64,000 nt of DNA, taken from NCBI GenBank assembly GCA_050246275.1, contig JBFWWI010000001.1, forward strand, positions 1,116,913-1,180,912. Direction: 5' to 3'. Origin of the DNA: Pyrinomonadaceae bacterium. GTDB taxonomy: Bacteria; Acidobacteriota; Blastocatellia; Pyrinomonadales; Pyrinomonadaceae. Shown here piece by piece: positions 6,566 to 15,092 of the stretch. Each line of letters starts with the position of its first letter. Position 1 is the stretch's first letter. Under the pieces are notes generated by a model that did not search any database, was not told the DNA's origin, and saw only the letters and a list, made by a program, of their open reading frames with translations. The position numbers were made by a program, and so were the translations under genes.

Positions 6566-6743
6566 AGATGCCGCGCGAGGTTTACGCTGAGGCTAACCCT
6601 CTTGTTTGCTTTGGTTTACACCGGCGGACCGGGTGATCGCCCGAGATCGGCCAGGGGAGACGTTTGGTGCGTACGTGCCGTCCGGCGCATAATGTATGTT
6701 CCCCTTTCGTGCCCGCTCTCGTTGTGATAGTGAGGAGAGACCA

Positions 6744-7190
6744 ATGCAAAAATACGCCCGATTTGGGGCAATGATCGCGGCTTCGACAGCATTGATGTTC
6801 TGTCTTATGTACCTCAACACATACAGTTGGGATCATGCCTTTTTCAGCGAAACGCGCACTTATATGGCGTTCTTGATGGGGGCGTCGATGGCGGTCTTGA
6901 TGCTGCTTTTCATGATCGATATGTACCCGAGCCGCAAGGCGAACATCGGGATCGTAGTGGGCAGCATCGCGGTCTTTGCCGTCTCGCTTTGGCTTGTGCG
7001 GAGCCAGGAGACGGTCGAGGATGTATCGTGGATGAAGGCCATGATCCCGCATCACTCGATCGCCATACTGACCAGCGAACGTGCAAACATCTCGGACCCG
7101 CGTGTAAGAAAACTCGCCGACGGGATAATCGAAACGCAACGCCGCGAGATCGCTGAGATGGAGGCATTGATCAAGGAGTTGGACCGATGA
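6744..7190 (+). CDS. DUF305-family protein (membrane-anchored; the family is often linked to metal/copper stress)
   Basis: The ATG at 6744 is preceded by GAGGAGAG. N-terminal TM segments are followed by MIPHHSIAILTSERA...LADGIIETQRREIAEMEALIKEL, the HH...Q..EI..M pattern of DUF305. Confidence 0.75.
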   Translation: MQKYARFGAMIAASTALMFCLMYLNTYSWDHAFFSETRTYMAFLMGASMAVLMLLFMIDMYPSRKANIGIVVGSIAVFAVSLWLVRSQETVEDVSWMKAMIPHHSIAILTSERANISDPRVRKLADGIIETQRREIAEMEALIKELDR

Positions 7191-7695: not shown

Positions 7696-8934
7696 TCACT
7701 TGGCCTCGCCGGAACGCCGGCGGCGGATGAGCGAACGGGCGGCGGCGAGAGCCTCTTTGTAGGCGTCTTTGTCGGTCTGCGGGCTGCACATCACAGCTCG
7801 GTCGTCGATGAAGGCGGACGCGACGGGCTTTCCGCGGCCGATGTAAACATCGCGAAAGGGTATCTTGTACCGCTCGAGCCAATCGATGATCTTTACACGC
7901 ATACGGACCGGGTCGATCATTCTGCCCGTCTCGTCGCCGAGGTCTTCGCTGCAGCGGGACGAATAGATCACGATGTCCGCTATCTTGTCGAGGGCGAGGG
8001 CGAAATCGCGGGCACCCTTGAGCGGTTCGCCGATCAGCTCAGGGCCTTTCCAGCCGTCGTACGAGGCGAGAACGCCGTCGAGGTCGATGCACACGCGCGG
8101 CTTGCGCTTGACCGCCGGCTTTTTAGGTTTAGGGGCGGGTTTTGGATCTTTCTTTACTGCACGCTTCTTTACTCTTGGCAGCGGTGCAGGGCGTGCGGAG
8201 AGCATCGCCTCGATCGCTTCGCCGCCCTCGAGCCATTCCTGCCCGATCATCGGGTCGAAATTCCTTACGCGTGTGAAATGCTTTCGCGTATGATGTCGGC
8301 CCGGCAGACGCAGCGTATAAGGCAGATCGTCCGGCCCGACTTCCCGCTTTGGCGGAAAGATCTCCGGCTTGCGCGGAAGGTCGAGTTGCTGCCAATCGGA
8401 GCGGACCGAATCGGCATAATCGTAAACATCGGCGAGCGGGTATTCGCGGTCGAGAAGTACCCATATGTGATAACCTCCCACGCCGTTGCTGTCGAAGACG
8501 AGCGGATCGAAACCGGCTGTCCGCAGACGCCCGGCCCAGACCATCGCGGCGTTCAGATTGGCCTCAGCGATCTCGCCGGCATTCGCCAGCGTTTCGTCGT
8601 GTAGGTCGATATCGATCGCGAACCACTTGGCCGTCTGATGATCGCTGATCGAATGAAGGCCGATGAGGTGCGAAACGACGCGGCCGGCAAAATGACGCTT
8701 GAGCTTGGTGATCGTCACCATATCGGTGCCCGCCGCTCGACGTTCTTTGATAGGCAACATCACAACGCGCACCTCGCCGTTGCGAAGCGTGTACTGGCTC
8801 CACACATCGCGGCGGTTCGCGAGGTGCTCCATCGCCCACTCGGCGAGTCGCTCGGAATAGTTTTGCCATTCCGACGCGATCCAGAGCATCCGGCGGTCGC
8901 CCGCAAATTCGATACCTATGTCGGTAGCTGCCAT
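7696..8934 (-). CDS. Archaeo-eukaryotic primase-polymerase (AEP/PrimPol) domain fused through a Lys/Pro-rich linker to a C-terminal HAD-superfamily phosphatase domain
   Basis: AEP motifs: FAIDIDLHD (DxD), NGVGGYHIWVLL (sGxxH) and LRLPGRHHTRKH (motif III region). Linker: KKRAVKKDPKPAPKPKKPAVKRKPR. HAD motifs: I CIDLDGVL, II VIYSSR, III GRGKP, IV AFIDDR. Confidence 0.75.
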   Translation of the reverse strand: MAATDIGIEFAGDRRMLWIASEWQNYSERLAEWAMEHLANRRDVWSQYTLRNGEVRVVMLPIKERRAAGTDMVTITKLKRHFAGRVVSHLIGLHSISDHQTAKWFAIDIDLHDETLANAGEIAEANLNAAMVWAGRLRTAGFDPLVFDSNGVGGYHIWVLLDREYPLADVYDYADSVRSDWQQLDLPRKPEIFPPKREVGPDDLPYTLRLPGRHHTRKHFTRVRNFDPMIGQEWLEGGEAIEAMLSARPAPLPRVKKRAVKKDPKPAPKPKKPAVKRKPRVCIDLDGVLASYDGWKGPELIGEPLKGARDFALALDKIADIVIYSSRCSEDLGDETGRMIDPVRMRVKIIDWLERYKIPFRDVYIGRGKPVASAFIDDRAVMCSPQTDKDAYKEALAAARSLIRRRRSGEAK

Positions 8935-8964
8935 CGAGGAATGCCTTCGCCTAAGCGATCGTGG

Positions 8965-10431
8965 TCAGGAGGCCTTCTCCCAACCGCCTACAAAATATTT
9001 CTTGGCCATTTCGTCCAGGAGCCGGCGTGCGGTCTTTTCGTTATTAGAGACCTTGATGTCGCGCTCGAGCGGCACCTTGCGGTTCGGGCTGAAGTCAGTG
9101 CCATAAACGACGTAACCGGGAAAATCGCCGGTGTCTTCTTTATTCGTCTTCCACAAGAGCAGCTTGCGGACCATCGGCGAGCCATGCATCACCTTGGTAT
9201 AGACTATGCGCTCGAGCAGTTCGCTGGGCTTAAGCTCGCCTGCACGGGCCGGTTTATCGGCATCCTGCACCGGAACGAGATCTTTTACCTGGCTGATGTT
9301 CACGTCCTCGCTGTTCGCCTCTTTATCGTCACGAAAACGTACGAATTGCGGGGAGATGACGCTGACGAGCGGCATTCGCGAAAGCGCAGAGTACCGCTTG
9401 CCGTTGAAATCCAGGACCATCTTTTTTACAGGGTCGCCCTTGGAGTTCTCAGGGATCAGGTCGAGAAAGGAGATCTCGATAACGGGTCCGGGCTCGATCA
9501 TCTCGTACGCGACGTAGTCATTGTTGACGGCGACGTACTCCGACGGAACGATCCGCTTGCGAAGGTCGGCAAAGATCTCTTTCCGATCATCCTCGGTAAA
9601 ACCTCCGCCGACCCGGGCGATCTCATGAAATGTACCATCGTCACGCATCACGGCGACGAGCAGATCGTGAAGCATGCCCTTGCGGTTATCGCTGCCCTCG
9701 GAAAAGCCGATGATCGCGGCATCGAGGTTATGGCGAGACTTTATTTTGTAATAGCCGAGCCGGTCATGCCGCAGGACGACGCCCTCAGCACCGTCGCCGA
9801 TAACCCAGTTGGTGAACGCGTCCTCGATCGTTTGGTGTTTGTCGGCGACAATGTGCTCGGCGGCCCGCACCAGCTTTCCGTTCTTGAACCATTTGTCGAG
9901 ATGTTTAAAGACCTCGGCAACGGCATCGACCGGCTTGCCCTCGAGCTGGGCGATATCAAAGACGGCAAGGCCGATACGCTTGAGATCGGCAGCGGACTTT
10001 GGATTTCTCAAGAGCGAAACGATCGCCTGCACCGGATTCCGGTTTCCCATATCGCCGGTGACGTACAGTTCCGCAGCGAGAACGCAGGACGTGACCTTTG
10101 CCTTCCTCAAAAGCTCGGCCGTTTCCTCAAAACATGGCAACCCGACGCGGACCGTGCCCCCGGGATTTACGCTGAAAATAGACGCGCCGTCGTAAACGAC
10201 ATATGTGAACTCGCCGTCGTACTTTCGGATAGCGTAGACCGAACGAACTTTCGGGAGCGACTGAATATCATGCGACGCGACGGCCCGCATCGCGCCGCTC
10301 AGGCGTCGGCGGTACTCGCGGGCCTTGCCCTGCCACGTCGGATCGGCGAGGTCCTGGGCTTTCCCGACCGCGTATTCACCTTTCTTTACGGTGAGTTTCT
10401 TTTTGTCGATGCTATCTTTCTTTTTCGCCAT
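8965..10431 (-). CDS. ATP-dependent DNA ligase (minimal NTase+OB type) with a ~110-aa C-terminal extension
   Basis: Motif I AIRKYDGEF (Lys70), III AELYV, IV EGVVLRH, V YYKIKSRHNLDAAIIG; OB region VGGGFTEDDRKEIF; motif VI QFVRFRDDK. The N-terminus is Lys-rich. The extra C-terminal domain ends ...ARRLLDEMAKKYFVGGWEKAS. Confidence 0.85.
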   Translation of the reverse strand: MAKKKDSIDKKKLTVKKGEYAVGKAQDLADPTWQGKAREYRRRLSGAMRAVASHDIQSLPKVRSVYAIRKYDGEFTYVVYDGASIFSVNPGGTVRVGLPCFEETAELLRKAKVTSCVLAAELYVTGDMGNRNPVQAIVSLLRNPKSAADLKRIGLAVFDIAQLEGKPVDAVAEVFKHLDKWFKNGKLVRAAEHIVADKHQTIEDAFTNWVIGDGAEGVVLRHDRLGYYKIKSRHNLDAAIIGFSEGSDNRKGMLHDLLVAVMRDDGTFHEIARVGGGFTEDDRKEIFADLRKRIVPSEYVAVNNDYVAYEMIEPGPVIEISFLDLIPENSKGDPVKKMVLDFNGKRYSALSRMPLVSVISPQFVRFRDDKEANSEDVNISQVKDLVPVQDADKPARAGELKPSELLERIVYTKVMHGSPMVRKLLLWKTNKEDTGDFPGYVVYGTDFSPNRKVPLERDIKVSNNEKTARRLLDEMAKKYFVGGWEKAS

Positions 10432-11134
10432 CGCCGTCCAGGATCTTTGGCCGCTTCAGTTCCATATTCGATAAATGAAGGATCAGACAGTAGGTATCCT
10501 TTTTGGTCCGGCCCTCGAGAAACGCGTTATAAGAACGCCCGCCGCGATTCATTACGATCGGCTGATCGCCTTTTTCTCCGCCGCGGACGAGCAGCAGCGA
10601 ACCGCGTTTCTCCAGGTCTTTTGCCATCTCATAAAGAAAGTCGAAGGTAAGGCCATTGATATGAACCAATTGCTTCTTACCGGTAAAAACAAAGCGGTGG
10701 ATCGCGTCTTCTTTCTTGATGTACTTTCCGGTCCATTTCAGGGGCTCGTCCGTATTGATATTCTGGAGTTCCTTTCGTCGTGGACGACGATCACGCAGTG
10801 TCCCGTCCGGGTCCTTGATCACCTCAAATTCGTCCACAACGTGAACGATCCCGCCTGGCGAAACATATACTCGCGAGGTCTCAGCCAGGAACTTGCCAAA
10901 AAGTTCGATGTTGATCTCCGGGTCTTCCTTGATCAACGCCATAGCGACCGAATCGAGTTTTTTTCGGCGCTTCATCAGTTGCGGAAGATCATGATCGATG
11001 TCGCTTTTCAGGATCTTTCGTGTCGTTATCGGGTCGCCGTTCCGGTCCCGGTAATAGACCTCACGTTCAGGCATGAGACCTTCCATCGCCACGACCGCGT
11101 CCCGGTTTTTCGCATTGCTGATGTTGATCGGCAT
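10412..11134 (-). CDS. Hypothetical protein (240 aa), operonic with the ligase
   Basis: Its stop overlaps the ligase start by 20 nt, and it starts 29 nt after the upstream ORF. No motif recognised by eye. Confidence 0.6.
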   Translation of the reverse strand: MPINISNAKNRDAVVAMEGLMPEREVYYRDRNGDPITTRKILKSDIDHDLPQLMKRRKKLDSVAMALIKEDPEINIELFGKFLAETSRVYVSPGGIVHVVDEFEVIKDPDGTLRDRRPRRKELQNINTDEPLKWTGKYIKKEDAIHRFVFTGKKQLVHINGLTFDFLYEMAKDLEKRGSLLLVRGGEKGDQPIVMNRGGRSYNAFLEGRTKKDTYCLILHLSNMELKRPKILDGDGEKER

Positions 11135-11163
11135 ATTGGCCCTGCTTTTACTCCCTGCTTTTA

Positions 11164-11772
11164 CTAAAGAAGATCGAAACTAATGTCGTCGGCCGAGATC
11201 TCCTGCTCCTCGACCTGATCGAGCCTAGCGGCCTGATTCAACCCGACAAAACCGATCTCTGCCCGCTTTCCGACGATCATAAATGCGTCTTTGCCCTGGC
11301 CGACAACGAATGCATCGTCGTATTCAAGTCCGCCGCGATAGCTGAATGGGAACGTATATATCAGGCCGGCAGAAAGATGATCTGTAAGAAGATCGAGCGG
11401 CCGCTCACCCGGGGACAAATAATAAACAGACTTCACTATCAGATCGAGATAATCGTCGATCTTGCTCTTCTGAAGTATGTTCGGGCCGTCAAAGGAAGAC
11501 GGTACCCGCTTGATCACTTCACCGTTCTCGTTGACGGGGACCAGGTCGGCCCGATCGATAGAGTCGCCTTTCGCATCGACGGTGGCGAGCGCCGTGCCGC
11601 CCTTGTCGATCAGGGTCATACCGTCTGCGTCGAGAACCTTTATCTCCGCAGGCCTGCCTTTTTCGTCGAACGCCTCGATCTCGACCGAGCCATAAAGCTT
11701 CTCACGGTCGACCTTAATTATCTCGACCGGAAACTCTTCGCCATCCAATGAAAGTGTCAATATCCTAGCCAT
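11164..11772 (-). CDS. Hypothetical protein (202 aa), first large gene of the ligase/PrimPol operon; faint Ku-like features
   Basis: Same strand, 29-nt gap to the next ORF. The N-terminus MARILTLSLDGEEFPVEIIKV and the central IDDYLDLIVKSVYYLSPGE resemble bacterial Ku patterns (M..iWkG.isFGLV.iPvkly and id..yf..sYyl.P), judged by eye only. Confidence 0.6.
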   Translation of the reverse strand: MARILTLSLDGEEFPVEIIKVDREKLYGSVEIEAFDEKGRPAEIKVLDADGMTLIDKGGTALATVDAKGDSIDRADLVPVNENGEVIKRVPSSFDGPNILQKSKIDDYLDLIVKSVYYLSPGERPLDLLTDHLSAGLIYTFPFSYRGGLEYDDAFVVGQGKDAFMIVGKRAEIGFVGLNQAARLDQVEEQEISADDISFDLL

Positions 11773-11950
11773 CTGAACAGAACTCTATATTTTAATCAGA
11801 CCCCGAATTGTGATGATTGCAAAACCGAACGGTTCCGACAAATCTGCTGCCATGGCCGGACGATCAATAGGGTAAATGCGGATCGATCCTCCGCCGGTGA
11901 ACCGTATATAGATGTTGAGATAAGACGTCGGCTGACATTTACCGGGATGC

Positions 11951-12154
11951 TCAGGCAAAGGTCTCCCGTGCCACCTCTCGCCGATGCCAGCACTTTGTAC
12001 AAAAGCGGCTTTCGCGAAGTTCTGACATCGTCAGGTCCTCAAAATCAGGGAGACAGCTAATCAGGTATTGCTGATCCTCCGTAAGCTCGGACCAGTTTCG
12101 GACTTTCATTGCGTTGCATCTCGGACATTGCGATTCTGAACCAAAGGCTTCCAT
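11951..12154 (-). CDS. Small zinc-ribbon-like protein (67 aa)
   Basis: Two Cys pairs, CPRC ... CTKC. Same strand and about 180 nt upstream of the operon. Whether it is really coding is uncertain. Confidence 0.4.
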   Translation of the reverse strand: MEAFGSESQCPRCNAMKVRNWSELTEDQQYLISCLPDFEDLTMSELRESRFCTKCWHRREVARETFA

Positions 12155-12287
12155 CGGTTTTGGCGTTTTGGGGATGTATGTTTAGAATCAAGATACTAAC
12201 CCGACGACGCAGGAAACTCAAAGCTATTTTCGACGCAACCGTACGGGTTTGATCTATCTAATCCTTTCGACCGACCCGTAAAGATAA

Positions 12288-15092
12288 ATGAATATCAAAA
12301 AGCTTCTGTTTCTGGCGACCTTTCTGGCAGTCAACTGTTTGACCGTTTCTGCTCAAACCGAAGAGAAATTCGATTTCTACACCCGCGGAGAATACCGGCC
12401 AAATGTGCCTAGGCCGCAATCGATCTTGCGTTACGATGTGGGCGACCATCATACGACCTATGCTCAAATGGAGCAGGTGATCAACGCGATCGCCTCAGCG
12501 GCGCCGGACCGTGTGAAGATCCTCCCAATCGGAACGACAAATGAACACCGTATGCAATATCTGATTGCCATCTCAGCGCCGGAGAACATGGCACGCCTTG
12601 ATGAGATCAAGGCTCAGAATGCCAGATTGGTCGATCCGCGTCGGACCTCAGCGGGCGAAGCTGAGGCGATAGCTCAAAATAACCCTGCGATCGCATGGAT
12701 GGCATACACCATCCACGGTAACGAGTCTTCGTCGTTCGAGGCATTTATGCAGGTGGTGTATCAACTTGCTGCTTCAAATGAGCCGACGACACTGGACATT
12801 CTCAAGAATACGGTTGTACTTGTCCTCGCTGGCGAGAACCCGGACGGCCACGAGCGTTTTGCTACCTGGTACAACTCGGTTGCCGTCGGCGATCCAAACC
12901 GTAACGCAATCGAACACCGCGAGCCATGGGCAATTTGGGGGCGGGTGAATCACTATCGATTCAATTTGAACCGCGACACACTAGCGTTTACTCAAAAGGA
13001 ATCGCGGAATATGCAGAAGGCATACATGGAGTGGAATCCGCAGCTCGCGGTAGATCATCACGGCCAGCCTTCGCAGTATTTCTTTCCGCCGGTCTCGTTG
13101 CCTATAAACCCGAATCTCCCGCAGCCGCAATATAACAAATGGCTCGATGTTTATGGGCGAGCCAATGCGGCCGCGTTCGATCGCAACAAATGGGATTACT
13201 ACGTAAGGGACGTGTTCGACGCCTTTTATCCGGGGTATTGGGATATGTATCCCTCGCTCAACGGCGCCACGGGAATGACTTATGAAACCGACGGCGGCGG
13301 ATTCAAGGGGCTCAAATGGACCCGGGATGACGGAACGATCGTTACATTTCGTTCATCCATCGCGAAGCATTACGTCGCGTCGATGACCACACTCGAATCG
13401 ACCGCGAAGAACAAGGTCGAAAGGATCAAGGACTTCTATGATTTCCGAGCCAGAGGTATGGCTGACCAGGCTCGTTCGAAGATGAAGCGCGTTGTGATCG
13501 ATCCGACCAGTGACCGCGTGAAGGCGGCCGAACTTGTCGAGGTGCTGCGACTTTCCAATGTCGAAGTTAAAGTTGCGTCGTCCTCATTCACATCGCCGAC
13601 CGCACACTCTTATATGGAAAAGGATGCAAAGGCGGCCTCACGCACTTTCCCGGCCGGTTCATACGTCATCGACCTCGACCAGCCTCAGAGAATTTATATA
13701 AAAGCAGTGCTCGAACAGGACACGCCGCAGGACAAAGCCTTCGTTGATGACAACATGGCCCGATTCAAACGAAACCAGATGCGTGGAAAGGGCCAGCCAA
13801 GGGAAGACTACGGGTTTTACGACATAACCGCTTGGTCAATGCCGCTCGCGTTCGGCGTGGATGCATGGTGGACCGAAGAATCCACAAATGTGGCGGGATC
13901 GATAGTCGATCAGACGATGCTCGAAAATGCGAAACGGGGCGGCGTGACGGGCCGCGCCGCGATCTCGTACATCATCCCGTACGAGACCGATTCTACCGGC
14001 GCCATGGTGATCAGGCTCTTGCAGGAAGGATTCAAGATCGCTGTAGCTACGCGGCCACTGAATGCGGGCGGGCGAAACTGGAAACGTGGAACGTTCGTGG
14101 TAAGAATTTCTAGAAATCCGGATACGATTCACGATGCGATCGCTAAATATGCTCGGGACATGGGCGTCAACGTAACGGCGGTCAATTCTGGATATAGTGA
14201 AGAAGGTGACACAAGCGTCGGCGGTGAGGCGGTTGTCTCGCTTCGCAAGCCGAAGATAGCGATCGCGGCTGACGAAGGCGTCACGCAGGAATCTTACGGA
14301 TCGATCTGGTGGACATTCGATAAACACGGCATCGCCTTTACGCCGATGACGATACCGACGATCAGGGGAGGAGGCCTCAAGGATTATAATGTCCTTATTA
14401 TCCCTGAAGGCTCGGCCGGACGTTACATGAGTTCGTTCGGGTCAGGTGGGGTCAGCGCCCTGAAGGACTTTGCGTCAGGCGGCGGAACGATCGTAACTAT
14501 AAGCGGTGCTTCGGTCTTCGCCGCGTTGAAGGATGTCGGACTCTCGTCGGTCAAGTTGGTCGGCAGTGACGACGACGAGCAAAAAGGAAAGGCCGAGGAT
14601 GAAAAGGACGCAAAACCCGCCGCCACCCCAACTCCCGAACCGGCAGGAATGGATCCAAAATCGGACCGCGAAGAGGGCATCGCCCCGAGCCTACCTCCGA
14701 TCGCATCGCCATCGGCAAATGCCAACAAGGTTCCGGAGGCACTTCCGGGAGCTATCTTTCGGGCGACCGTCGACCGTACGACCTATATCAATTACGGCGT
14801 CGAAAAGAACGAGATACCTGTTCTGCTCGCAAACGGTTATTTCTTCCGCTATTCAAAGGAAGGGACAAATGCTCTGGTCTTTGACGCCTCTCCGAAGAGA
14901 CCGCTTACAATATCCGGTTTCGTTTGGGAGGGTAACACTGAGCGTCTCTTAAAGGGAACAGCATATGTCATAGACGAATCGCTTGGAGGCGGGCATGTGG
15001 TCCTTTTTGCCGAGGATCCGTTCTATCGTGGAATGACCCGATCGACCTCTCGACAATTTTTCAACGCCATCGCCTTTAATGGTATATTCTAA
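12288..15092 (+). CDS. Secreted M14-family zinc carboxypeptidase-like protein with a large C-terminal extension
   Basis: Signal peptide MNIKKLLFLATFLAVNCLTVSAQ. The HGNESSS (HxxE zinc ligand motif) context TIHGNESSSFEAF is followed by ENPDGHE and a later DHHGQ. Confidence 0.85.
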   Translation: MNIKKLLFLATFLAVNCLTVSAQTEEKFDFYTRGEYRPNVPRPQSILRYDVGDHHTTYAQMEQVINAIASAAPDRVKILPIGTTNEHRMQYLIAISAPENMARLDEIKAQNARLVDPRRTSAGEAEAIAQNNPAIAWMAYTIHGNESSSFEAFMQVVYQLAASNEPTTLDILKNTVVLVLAGENPDGHERFATWYNSVAVGDPNRNAIEHREPWAIWGRVNHYRFNLNRDTLAFTQKESRNMQKAYMEWNPQLAVDHHGQPSQYFFPPVSLPINPNLPQPQYNKWLDVYGRANAAAFDRNKWDYYVRDVFDAFYPGYWDMYPSLNGATGMTYETDGGGFKGLKWTRDDGTIVTFRSSIAKHYVASMTTLESTAKNKVERIKDFYDFRARGMADQARSKMKRVVIDPTSDRVKAAELVEVLRLSNVEVKVASSSFTSPTAHSYMEKDAKAASRTFPAGSYVIDLDQPQRIYIKAVLEQDTPQDKAFVDDNMARFKRNQMRGKGQPREDYGFYDITAWSMPLAFGVDAWWTEESTNVAGSIVDQTMLENAKRGGVTGRAAISYIIPYETDSTGAMVIRLLQEGFKIAVATRPLNAGGRNWKRGTFVVRISRNPDTIHDAIAKYARDMGVNVTAVNSGYSEEGDTSVGGEAVVSLRKPKIAIAADEGVTQESYGSIWWTFDKHGIAFTPMTIPTIRGGGLKDYNVLIIPEGSAGRYMSSFGSGGVSALKDFASGGGTIVTISGASVFAALKDVGLSSVKLVGSDDDEQKGKAEDEKDAKPAATPTPEPAGMDPKSDREEGIAPSLPPIASPSANANKVPEALPGAIFRATVDRTTYINYGVEKNEIPVLLANGYFFRYSKEGTNALVFDASPKRPLTISGFVWEGNTERLLKGTAYVIDESLGGGHVVLFAEDPFYRGMTRSTSRQFFNAIAFNGIF

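Follow-up and report, generated by a model that had tools for sequence, protein, structure and literature searches.

What do two small proteins that profile libraries cannot assign do when they are encoded in one operon with a DNA ligase and a primase-polymerase fused to a phosphatase? The question is raised by a locus in the chromosomal DNA of a Pyrinomonadaceae bacterium (Acidobacteriota), which lies in a stretch of 64,000 nucleotides of the contig JBFWWI010000001.1 (assembly GCA_050246275.1, positions 1,116,913 to 1,180,912 of the forward strand), here termed the window. Our answer, to which we give a probability of roughly 0.6, is that the locus specifies an end-joining (non-homologous end joining, NHEJ) system with a Ku-like heterodimer made of the two small proteins, which we call P202 and P240 after their lengths. 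The genes of this operon, in window coordinates, are as follows:

11164-11772, minus strand: P202 gene, candidate Ku-like subunit A (202 aa; ORF scan)
10412-11134, minus strand: P240 gene, probable Ku-like subunit B (240 aa; ORF scan)
8965-10431, minus strand: stand-alone ATP-dependent DNA ligase (488 aa; ORF scan and Pfam)
7696-8934, minus strand: PrimPol-type AEP fused to a HAD phosphatase, AEP-HAD (412 aa; ORF scan and motifs)

The four open reading frames (ORFs) are separated by a 29-nt gap between P202 and P240 and a 30-nt gap between the ligase and AEP-HAD, while P240 and the ligase overlap by 20 nt. Since each of them has hundreds of homologues, they are more than chance ORFs. A preliminary description of the window, made from the sequence alone, had proposed this minus-strand operon, and the ORF scan reproduces its spacings and coordinates exactly; its further claim that two unassignable proteins are translationally linked to the enzymes agrees with the P240/ligase overlap and the tight junctions of the operon. 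The profile libraries are indeed blind to both proteins (neither P202 nor P240 has a match in Pfam, NCBIfam, PADLOC, or PHROGs, or to PDB entries by sequence with either shallow or deep profiles), and it is the structural comparison by Foldseek that points to a Ku fold.

In the case of P202, the AlphaFold2 model, computed from a diverse alignment of 111 sequences (26-61% identity), has a pLDDT of 90 and a pTM of 0.75. A Foldseek search of the PDB with this model returned Ku in all 50 of the 50 best matches, 16 of them with E < 1e-3, the best being the core of Bacillus subtilis Ku (9vnq_A; E = 4.9e-6, TM 0.51/0.46, 204 aligned columns). The model aligns with the bacterial Ku cores (β-barrel, bridge, and pillar) over essentially its full length, which indicates that P202 has the Ku core fold without the C-terminal arm. 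The protein is acidic (pI 4.3), as is its family throughout (median pI 4.31, net charge -12 to -29), and its acidic tail terminates in a D-F motif (..ADDISFDLL), the D198 and F199 of which are at least 90% conserved. We recovered 828 homologues of P202, the top matches listed being from metagenome-assembled genomes (MAGs) of Pyrinomonadaceae and other Acidobacteria at 62-82% identity, a range that covers both P202 and P240. An exhaustive profile search brought the family to 592 clusters at 50% identity (E ≤ 1e-3), making it far broader than the Pyrinomonadales matches had suggested.

The second protein, P240, has 1721 homologues, and its model, obtained from a shallow alignment, is weak (pLDDT 50). 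With this low-confidence model, the 50 best PDB matches in Foldseek are again without exception Ku70, Ku80, or bacterial Ku (Mycobacterium tuberculosis, B. subtilis), with E-values of 2e-3 to 8e-2, a probability of about 1, and TM scores of about 0.3. The search of the BFVD library of viral models yielded one credible match, namely the Ku of Mycobacterium phage Dylan (probability 0.96). The C-terminal halves of the P202 and P240 models share the same order of elements, strand-helix-strand-strand-strand. P240 is basic (pI 9.2), and its family (median pI 9.09) is mostly so, resembling canonical Ku in this respect. No fewer than 580 GTDB species have a close relative of P240, and this count is a minimum, as the patterns used were specific to particular clades; the best 80 of these are all Acidobacteriota MAGs.

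Both proteins lie outside the Ku sequence family (PF02735), given that Ku profiles were tested and did not recognize them: none of the 111 diverse P202 members matches Pfam, the Ku profile included, and none of eight P240 members has a Pfam Ku match. With no sequence link to Ku or to each other, we hold the prediction of a Ku fold with high confidence for P202 and with moderate confidence for P240, which we regard as a probable Ku-fold protein. Comparison by tblastn with eight real Ku sequences found canonical Ku neither in the window nor in any of the locus contigs.

The gene neighborhoods of the homologues identify what is conserved about the operon. We compared the five window proteins (those of the operon and of a small upstream ORF with paired CxxC motifs) by tblastn with 87 loci from Pyrinomonadales and Blastocatellia MAGs, and found that the order P202-P240-ligase is constant wherever the contig allows it to be seen, with AEP-HAD next in most of them. 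Distant P240 sequences were used to seed a scan of metagenomes, which added 80 further loci from lakes, oceans, and soils, in which the genes stand on the same strand in the order P202-P240-ligase (40 loci) or ligase-P202-P240 (20 loci), AEP-HAD being found in none; one or both of the ligase and P202 are missing from the remaining 23 metagenome loci, for the most part at contig ends. Likewise, the contigs of distant P202 relatives carry a ligase with a P202-like and a P240-like gene in permuted order and no AEP-HAD. Clustering of 1500 ORFs from 163 loci recovered P240 in 150, P202 in 140, the ligase in 129, and AEP-HAD in 55 loci, the latter all from Pyrinomonadales, and beyond these four families nothing recurs in more than 12 of the 163. 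Among the testable loci, i.e., those with enough sequence to judge, the ligase adjoins the Ku-like pair in 41 of 42 from Pyrinomonadales and 34 of 36 from other clades, and AEP-HAD is present in 37 of 41 and 0 of 15, respectively. Neighboring genes are tightly joined: three of the four measured sets have median junctions of -11 to +37 nt, and in Pyrinomonadales the five smallest P240-ligase junctions listed include four overlaps of 17-20 nt.

Thus, the conserved unit is the triad of P202, P240, and the ligase, and AEP-HAD is a lineage-specific add-on of the Pyrinomonadales loci. The preliminary description had envisaged a set of four or five genes; its core of P202, P240, and the ligase is co-conserved, while AEP-HAD is confined to Pyrinomonadales and the small CxxC ORF, a Zn-ribbon candidate, is not conserved. 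The triad occurs in about 160 loci, most of them without a taxon label, and ranges over Acidobacteriota (Pyrinomonadales), one MAG labelled Bacteroidota (P0411), and metagenomes of fresh water, the sea, and soil; the Bacteroidota label of P0411 is the single NCBI taxon label found among the distant clades.

The third member of the triad belongs to the ATP-dependent DNA ligase superfamily, with matches above the cut-off to Pfam DNA_ligase_A_M (PF01068; 31.2 bits versus 26.2) and DNA_ligase_A_C (PF04679; 37.6 bits versus 27.5). It lacks an N-terminal DNA-binding domain and is composed of three parts:

9733-10245, minus strand: nucleotidyltransferase (NTase) domain, aa 63-233, motif I K70 (KYDG) (Pfam, motif conservation)
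9322-9684, minus strand: OB domain, aa 250-370, motif VI (RFRDDK) (Pfam, motif conservation)
8968-9234, minus strand: C-terminal domain, about aa 400-488, VRK..WKTNKE..TDFSxxRK..GWEKA (conservation)

The 120 orthologues compared preserve the catalytic motifs K70-Y-D-G, EG, KxK, and R..DK, and the closest PDB relatives are archaeal ligases, which align with residues 70-324 in the NTase and OB part. The C-terminal domain of approximately 90 aa is conserved in all clades with the triad, is recognized by no library, and has no Pfam match in four orthologues even at E-values up to 10; a WGR domain, considered because of its sequence pattern, was dropped on this ground. We propose that it might be a partner- or DNA-binding module. 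A complete ligase motif set followed by an extra C-terminal domain had been read from the translation beforehand, and both are borne out by Pfam and by the conservation among the 120 orthologues. The locus is not a LigD system, because its domains are unfused and the LigD profiles score far below their cut-offs on the ligase (TIGR02779, 48 bits versus 227.75; TIGR02776, 36.7 versus 373.2); there is no match to the LigD phosphoesterase (PE) or polymerase (POL) profiles and no fusion of the ligase to either activity. Antisense to the whole ligase gene there is also a 670-aa open frame (8638-10650, plus strand), in all likelihood an artefact of composition, the coding strand being GC-rich.

The gene that follows the ligase in the window codes for a protein with two predicted catalytic domains joined by a linker:

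8290-8730, minus strand: AEP primase-polymerase domain, about aa 69-215; D108xD110, GGYH156, E191-IFP, RLPG (7nqf alignment)
8101-8181, minus strand: Lys/Pro-rich linker before the HAD domain, aa 252-278
7765-8100, minus strand: HAD phosphatase domain, about aa 279-390; D284xD286GV, S325/S326, K369, D377D378 (motifs, PHROGs)

Motifs I (AIDIDL), II (GGYHIW), and III (EIFP) of the AEP domain align with those of the solved CRISPR-associated PrimPol of Marinitoga (MsCAPP, 7nqf) and are conserved in 53 orthologues, which places it among the primase-polymerases of the PrimPol clade. Its best Pfam match is AEP-TOTE (PF22548), at 23.1-24.6 bits and thus under the cut-off of 27. TOTE is the TPR-OB-TBP-Effector conflict system (bioRxiv 10.1101/2025.09.15.676423), and we rejected membership in it given this subthreshold score and the lack of TPR, OB, or TBP partner genes nearby. 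The four HAD motifs are likewise conserved among the orthologues, and the domain matches phrog_1238 (5e-11), TIGR01689 (8e-5, well under its cut-off), and weakly phrog_415, a polynucleotide kinase family (0.0076). Hence, the AEP motifs and all four HAD motifs noted in the preliminary description recur across orthologues, and the AEP alignment to 7nqf adds to them. Searches of phage collections with AEP-HAD matched just two small phage HAD genes. Judging by its fusion partner, the AEP, and by its place in the operon, the HAD domain may act on 3′-phosphate DNA ends, and it could plausibly take the place of the phosphoesterase of LigD.

How might these parts work together? A parts list of a Ku-fold pair, an ATP-dependent ligase, an AEP, and an end phosphatase most likely amounts to NHEJ in a new architecture. 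We propose that the acidic P202 and the basic P240 would assemble as a heterodimeric ring similar to Ku70/80, which would thread onto double-stranded DNA ends and recruit the co-translated stand-alone ligase, perhaps via the D-F tail of P202 and the basic C-terminal domain of the ligase. In Pyrinomonadales, the AEP domain of AEP-HAD would then fill gaps or add nucleotides at the ends and its HAD domain would strip blocking 3′-phosphates, before the ligase finally seals the break. We infer the heterodimer, end binding, ligase recruitment, the substrate of the HAD domain, and the role in double-strand-break repair; what the computations show is the structure of the genes with their catalytic motifs, the Ku fold of P202, and a strict synteny of the triad in the different clades. 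The heterodimer in particular is suggested by the invariant one-to-one adjacency of P202 and P240, their opposite charges, and the dimeric nature of Ku; the family pI values of 4.31 and 9.09 fit an obligate heteromer. That the locus might be a rewired NHEJ or end-repair system had been surmised from its enzymes, and this surmise is upheld and sharpened by the present analysis, in which the unassigned proteins would carry the Ku fold and supply the missing NHEJ component. The accompanying remark that the locus matches no named system also holds, insofar as the family is absent from Pfam, NCBIfam, PADLOC, PHROGs, and the literature searched; that search found no description of it, its coverage being incomplete and its outcome short of a proof of novelty.

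Several observations weigh against this proposal. The hhalign comparison of the P202 and P240 families with an eight-sequence Ku alignment, built from eight plasmid ku genes, gave probabilities below 1%. Its sole long alignment pairs P202 25-135 with Ku 19-132 (VYYLSPG/YYVGP), and because its probability is 0.23% the resemblance to Ku that the eye picks out is without statistical support at the sequence level. Homology between P202 and P240 is undetectable with shallow and deep alignments alike. As to the structures, the TM score of P202 to Ku is just about 0.5 and its model was built as a monomer, and the assignment of P240 derives from a low-confidence model with a TM score of about 0.3. A net charge of about -20 on P202 is unusual for a DNA-end binder, and the subfamily matches of the HAD domain (a capsule phosphatase and a phage 'phosphoheptose isomerase') point to no DNA substrate.

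Other roles were weighed as well, among them nick, gap, or excision repair of the LigC/Prim-PolC type, with the Ku-fold proteins serving as a DNA-binding accessory or scaffold rather than an end-capturing ring, and the ligase and AEP-HAD processing single-strand gaps or abasic-site intermediates. The ligase without a LigD fusion is consistent with such a role, as is the adjacency of a stand-alone ligase and a stand-alone AEP, known from the mycobacterial ligC-primpolC operon. However, the AEP is absent from every triad outside Pyrinomonadales while the Ku-fold genes are never missing, and to our knowledge the only function of the prokaryotic Ku fold is the binding of double-stranded ends; we consider this alternative unlikely. 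RNA repair, in which the ligase would seal RNA, the HAD domain heal 3′-phosphates, and the Ku-fold proteins bind structured RNA, draws on the weak matches of two orthologous ligases (loci L099 and L180) to Pfam RNA_ligase, on the ability of eukaryotic Ku to bind RNA hairpins, and on the presence of the Ku-TLC1 structure 5y58 among the Foldseek matches of P202 and P240. Against this, the ligase is most closely related to DNA ligases and bears motif VI in an OB domain of the DNA-ligase type, the AEP primase-polymerase is a DNA-templated enzyme, and the system comes without a kinase or 2′,3′-cyclic phosphodiesterase, making RNA repair highly improbable.

A role in biological conflict or in the upkeep of mobile elements would have the Ku-like pair bind foreign or linear DNA ends, much as Mu Gam or phage Ku do, and the ligase and AEP act on the DNA of an invader or element, be it for defence, anti-defence, or element maintenance. 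The affinities of the AEP (AEP-TOTE as its best Pfam match and a CRISPR-associated PrimPol as its closest solved relative), the differing neighborhoods between genomes, and the toxin-antitoxin cassettes inside the module in some of them could be understood in these terms. Yet the AEP-TOTE match is under the cut-off and the TPR, OB, and TBP partners are absent; PADLOC gave zero matches for the five proteins at E-values up to 1; there are no relatives in IMG/VR, the phage collection, or the PLSDB plasmids; no integrase or defence gene is a recurrent neighbor in the 163 loci; and the occurrence in at least 580 GTDB species, with 60-80% identity within one order, fits vertical inheritance. In the preliminary description, an island-borne module acting on foreign DNA was offered as an alternative, and a finding that the unassigned proteins are ordinary phage or plasmid replication proteins was named as a ground for refutation. 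The lack of relatives in phages, plasmids, and PADLOC, together with the lack of a recurrent integrase or defence neighbor, removes this ground and speaks against an island or a defence function, the flanks being varied and mostly of the housekeeping type; we regard a conflict function as distinctly improbable.

If the locus is indeed an end-joining system, it departs from those already known in several ways. Bacterial NHEJ is commonly taught as a Ku homodimer with LigD, and operons of Ku, a ligase, and an AEP were reportedly what defined it for Aravind and Koonin in 2001. Like the Ku-LigD systems of M. tuberculosis and B. subtilis, the present one is a chromosomal repair operon with a predicted Ku-fold end binder beside an ATP-dependent ligase, and with an AEP and a putative 3′-end-cleaning activity in the gene set. 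In contrast to their single Ku, however, it has two unlike genes for candidate Ku-fold proteins, one acidic and one basic, that are invisible to profiles. Unlike LigD, its ligase stands alone with a novel conserved C-terminal domain, its AEP falls in the PrimPol/CAPP-like rather than the LigD-POL clade, and in lieu of the LigD phosphoesterase there is a HAD domain fused to the AEP, with AEP-HAD as a whole being dispensable in most clades. Activities borne by separate polypeptides from one cluster are also a feature of Methanocella paludicola, the NHEJ of which is said (Bartlett et al. 2013) to have one gene each for Ku, Lig, Pol, and PE; there, however, Ku is single and canonical, Pol and PE are of the LigD type, and both a HAD domain and an extra ligase domain are lacking. 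The mycobacterial LigC/Prim-PolC operons share the stand-alone NTase-OB ligase beside a stand-alone AEP, but they lack a Ku-fold pair and a HAD fusion and act in excision repair.

Eukaryotic NHEJ employs the HAD-type 3′-phosphatase of PNKP. Ku70/80-Lig4-PNKP resembles the locus in a heterodimeric Ku, a partner-binding C-terminal extension of the ligase, and a HAD-type 3′-phosphatase (the heterodimer, the partner binding, and the 3′-phosphatase being proposed for the locus); the locus, however, has no vWA or SAP domains, no XRCC4, XLF, or DNA-PKcs, and no kinase domain, and the resemblance is functional and architectural and is no evidence of orthology. Among bacteria, genetic evidence for a Ku heterodimer comes from Ku3-Ku4 of Sinorhizobium meliloti (PMC6379672). 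The Ku3-Ku4/LigD4 system is similar to ours in having two adjacent, co-expressed ku genes, a proposed eukaryote-like heterodimer, and a dedicated ligase (PMC6379672). It differs in that Ku3 and Ku4 are canonical Ku members and LigD4 is a multidomain LigD, whereas the subunits encoded in the locus lie outside the Ku sequence family.

A bolder reading, to which we give slightly less than even odds, is that these loci represent a widespread and unrecognized class of bacterial NHEJ with an obligate acidic/basic Ku heterodimer, both subunits of which would have diverged too far for sequence profiles to detect, and its own ligase with a new C-terminal docking domain. The class would span Acidobacteriota, one or more MAGs labelled Bacteroidota, and numerous uncultured lineages of fresh water, the sea, and soil. 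NHEJ has been mapped by Ku and LigD profiles to about a quarter of species (PMC7719229; PMC10932983). Surveys find Ku by HMMs built from canonical Ku (PMC7719229; PMC11936186), and for that reason the published ones would miss the P202/P240 family, which escapes Ku and LigD profiles although at least 580 GTDB species and hundreds of metagenome contigs carry it. If this reading is true, profile-based surveys undercount bacterial NHEJ. Bacteroidetes have been reported as 'LigD-only', mostly without POL or PE (PMC7719229); part of this 'LigD-only, no Ku' state (PMC7719229) might correspond to the triad, and would then be a complete system. The same reading would imply that a heterodimeric Ku and a HAD-type end phosphatase arose in bacteria in parallel with eukaryotic Ku70/80-PNKP. 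Should the triad be functional, end joining would extend into abundant soil and aquatic lineages, and biology would gain a natural bacterial model for heterodimeric Ku, a new ligase-docking domain, a PrimPol-HAD end-processing enzyme, and a compact three-gene end-joining kit that might help to edit the genomes of bacteria without NHEJ of their own.

Two further features lie upstream of the operon:

11773-11950, minus strand: non-coding stretch, AT-richer than the genes (GC profile), presumed promoter region
11951-12154, minus strand: Zn-ribbon CxxC...CxxC ORF (67 aa), 178 nt upstream of the P202 gene

The GC content is 0.47-0.51 over 11600-12400 as against 0.55-0.61 within the ligase and AEP genes; that of the P240 gene (window 10400-11000), at 0.49, is likewise below those of the neighboring ligase and AEP-HAD genes (0.56-0.61). 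The operon is flanked by two plus-strand genes, coding for a DUF305 protein (6696-7190) and an M14 peptidase (12288-15092). The annotation and the GC profile bear out what had been said beforehand of these flanks and of the AT-richer upstream end. In other genomes the flanks vary and are of ordinary chromosomal kinds, such as alpha-2-macroglobulin/hemerythrin, IF-1/RRM/radical-SAM, HslUV/RecO, and PolA. Promoter and terminator scans gave no more than chance-level signals, and 74 orthologous upstream regions have no common motif, no enriched 8-mer, and no LexA box; SOS/LexA control was rejected, with the GTTCN7GTTC box occurring in just 3 of the 74. The 64-kb window contains zero tRNA genes and zero Rfam families at the gathering threshold.

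The Zn-ribbon ORF recurs only in one contig of 98% identity (L008, JAJNPX010000197.1), is missing from the other 86 of the 87 loci, and was uncalled by the gene caller on L096. We rejected it as a fifth member of the system, as it does not recur outside this near-identical contig; it could be a small gene peculiar to the strain, or no gene at all. The contig itself has 97-100% protein identity to the window over the five ORFs and is labelled 'Acidisarcina sp.' (Terriglobia), while the other listed relatives of its proteins are from Pyrinomonadaceae or Blastocatellia; it is probably mis-binned or mislabelled. A 67-aa gene between the two Ku-like genes of locus L001 is unrelated to the Zn-ribbon ORF.

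Some loci depart from the common arrangement. In L006, a 2.8-Mb MAG contig, a Kelch-repeat gene on the opposite strand (10648-11646) stands between the P202-like and P240-like genes, making it one of the few loci in which the pair is split, here by about 1.5 kb. Small cassettes are inserted between the ligase and AEP-HAD genes of several Pyrinomonadales genomes (L038 10286-10849; L056 4547-4822; L073 10303-10584; L048 2353-3008; L032 6272-6622; L067 4228-4569; L031 10310-10882; L036 4461-4895), which look like toxin-antitoxin genes (HigB/HigA-like, VapBC-like, PIN-like) or a nucleotidyltransferase-like gene, and this junction appears to be an insertion hotspot. Finally, at one locus (L097, 6731-11743), a distant triad is followed downstream by genes for an AAA_5 (MoxR-like) ATPase, a 905-aa LRR protein, and a DUF2201 protein.

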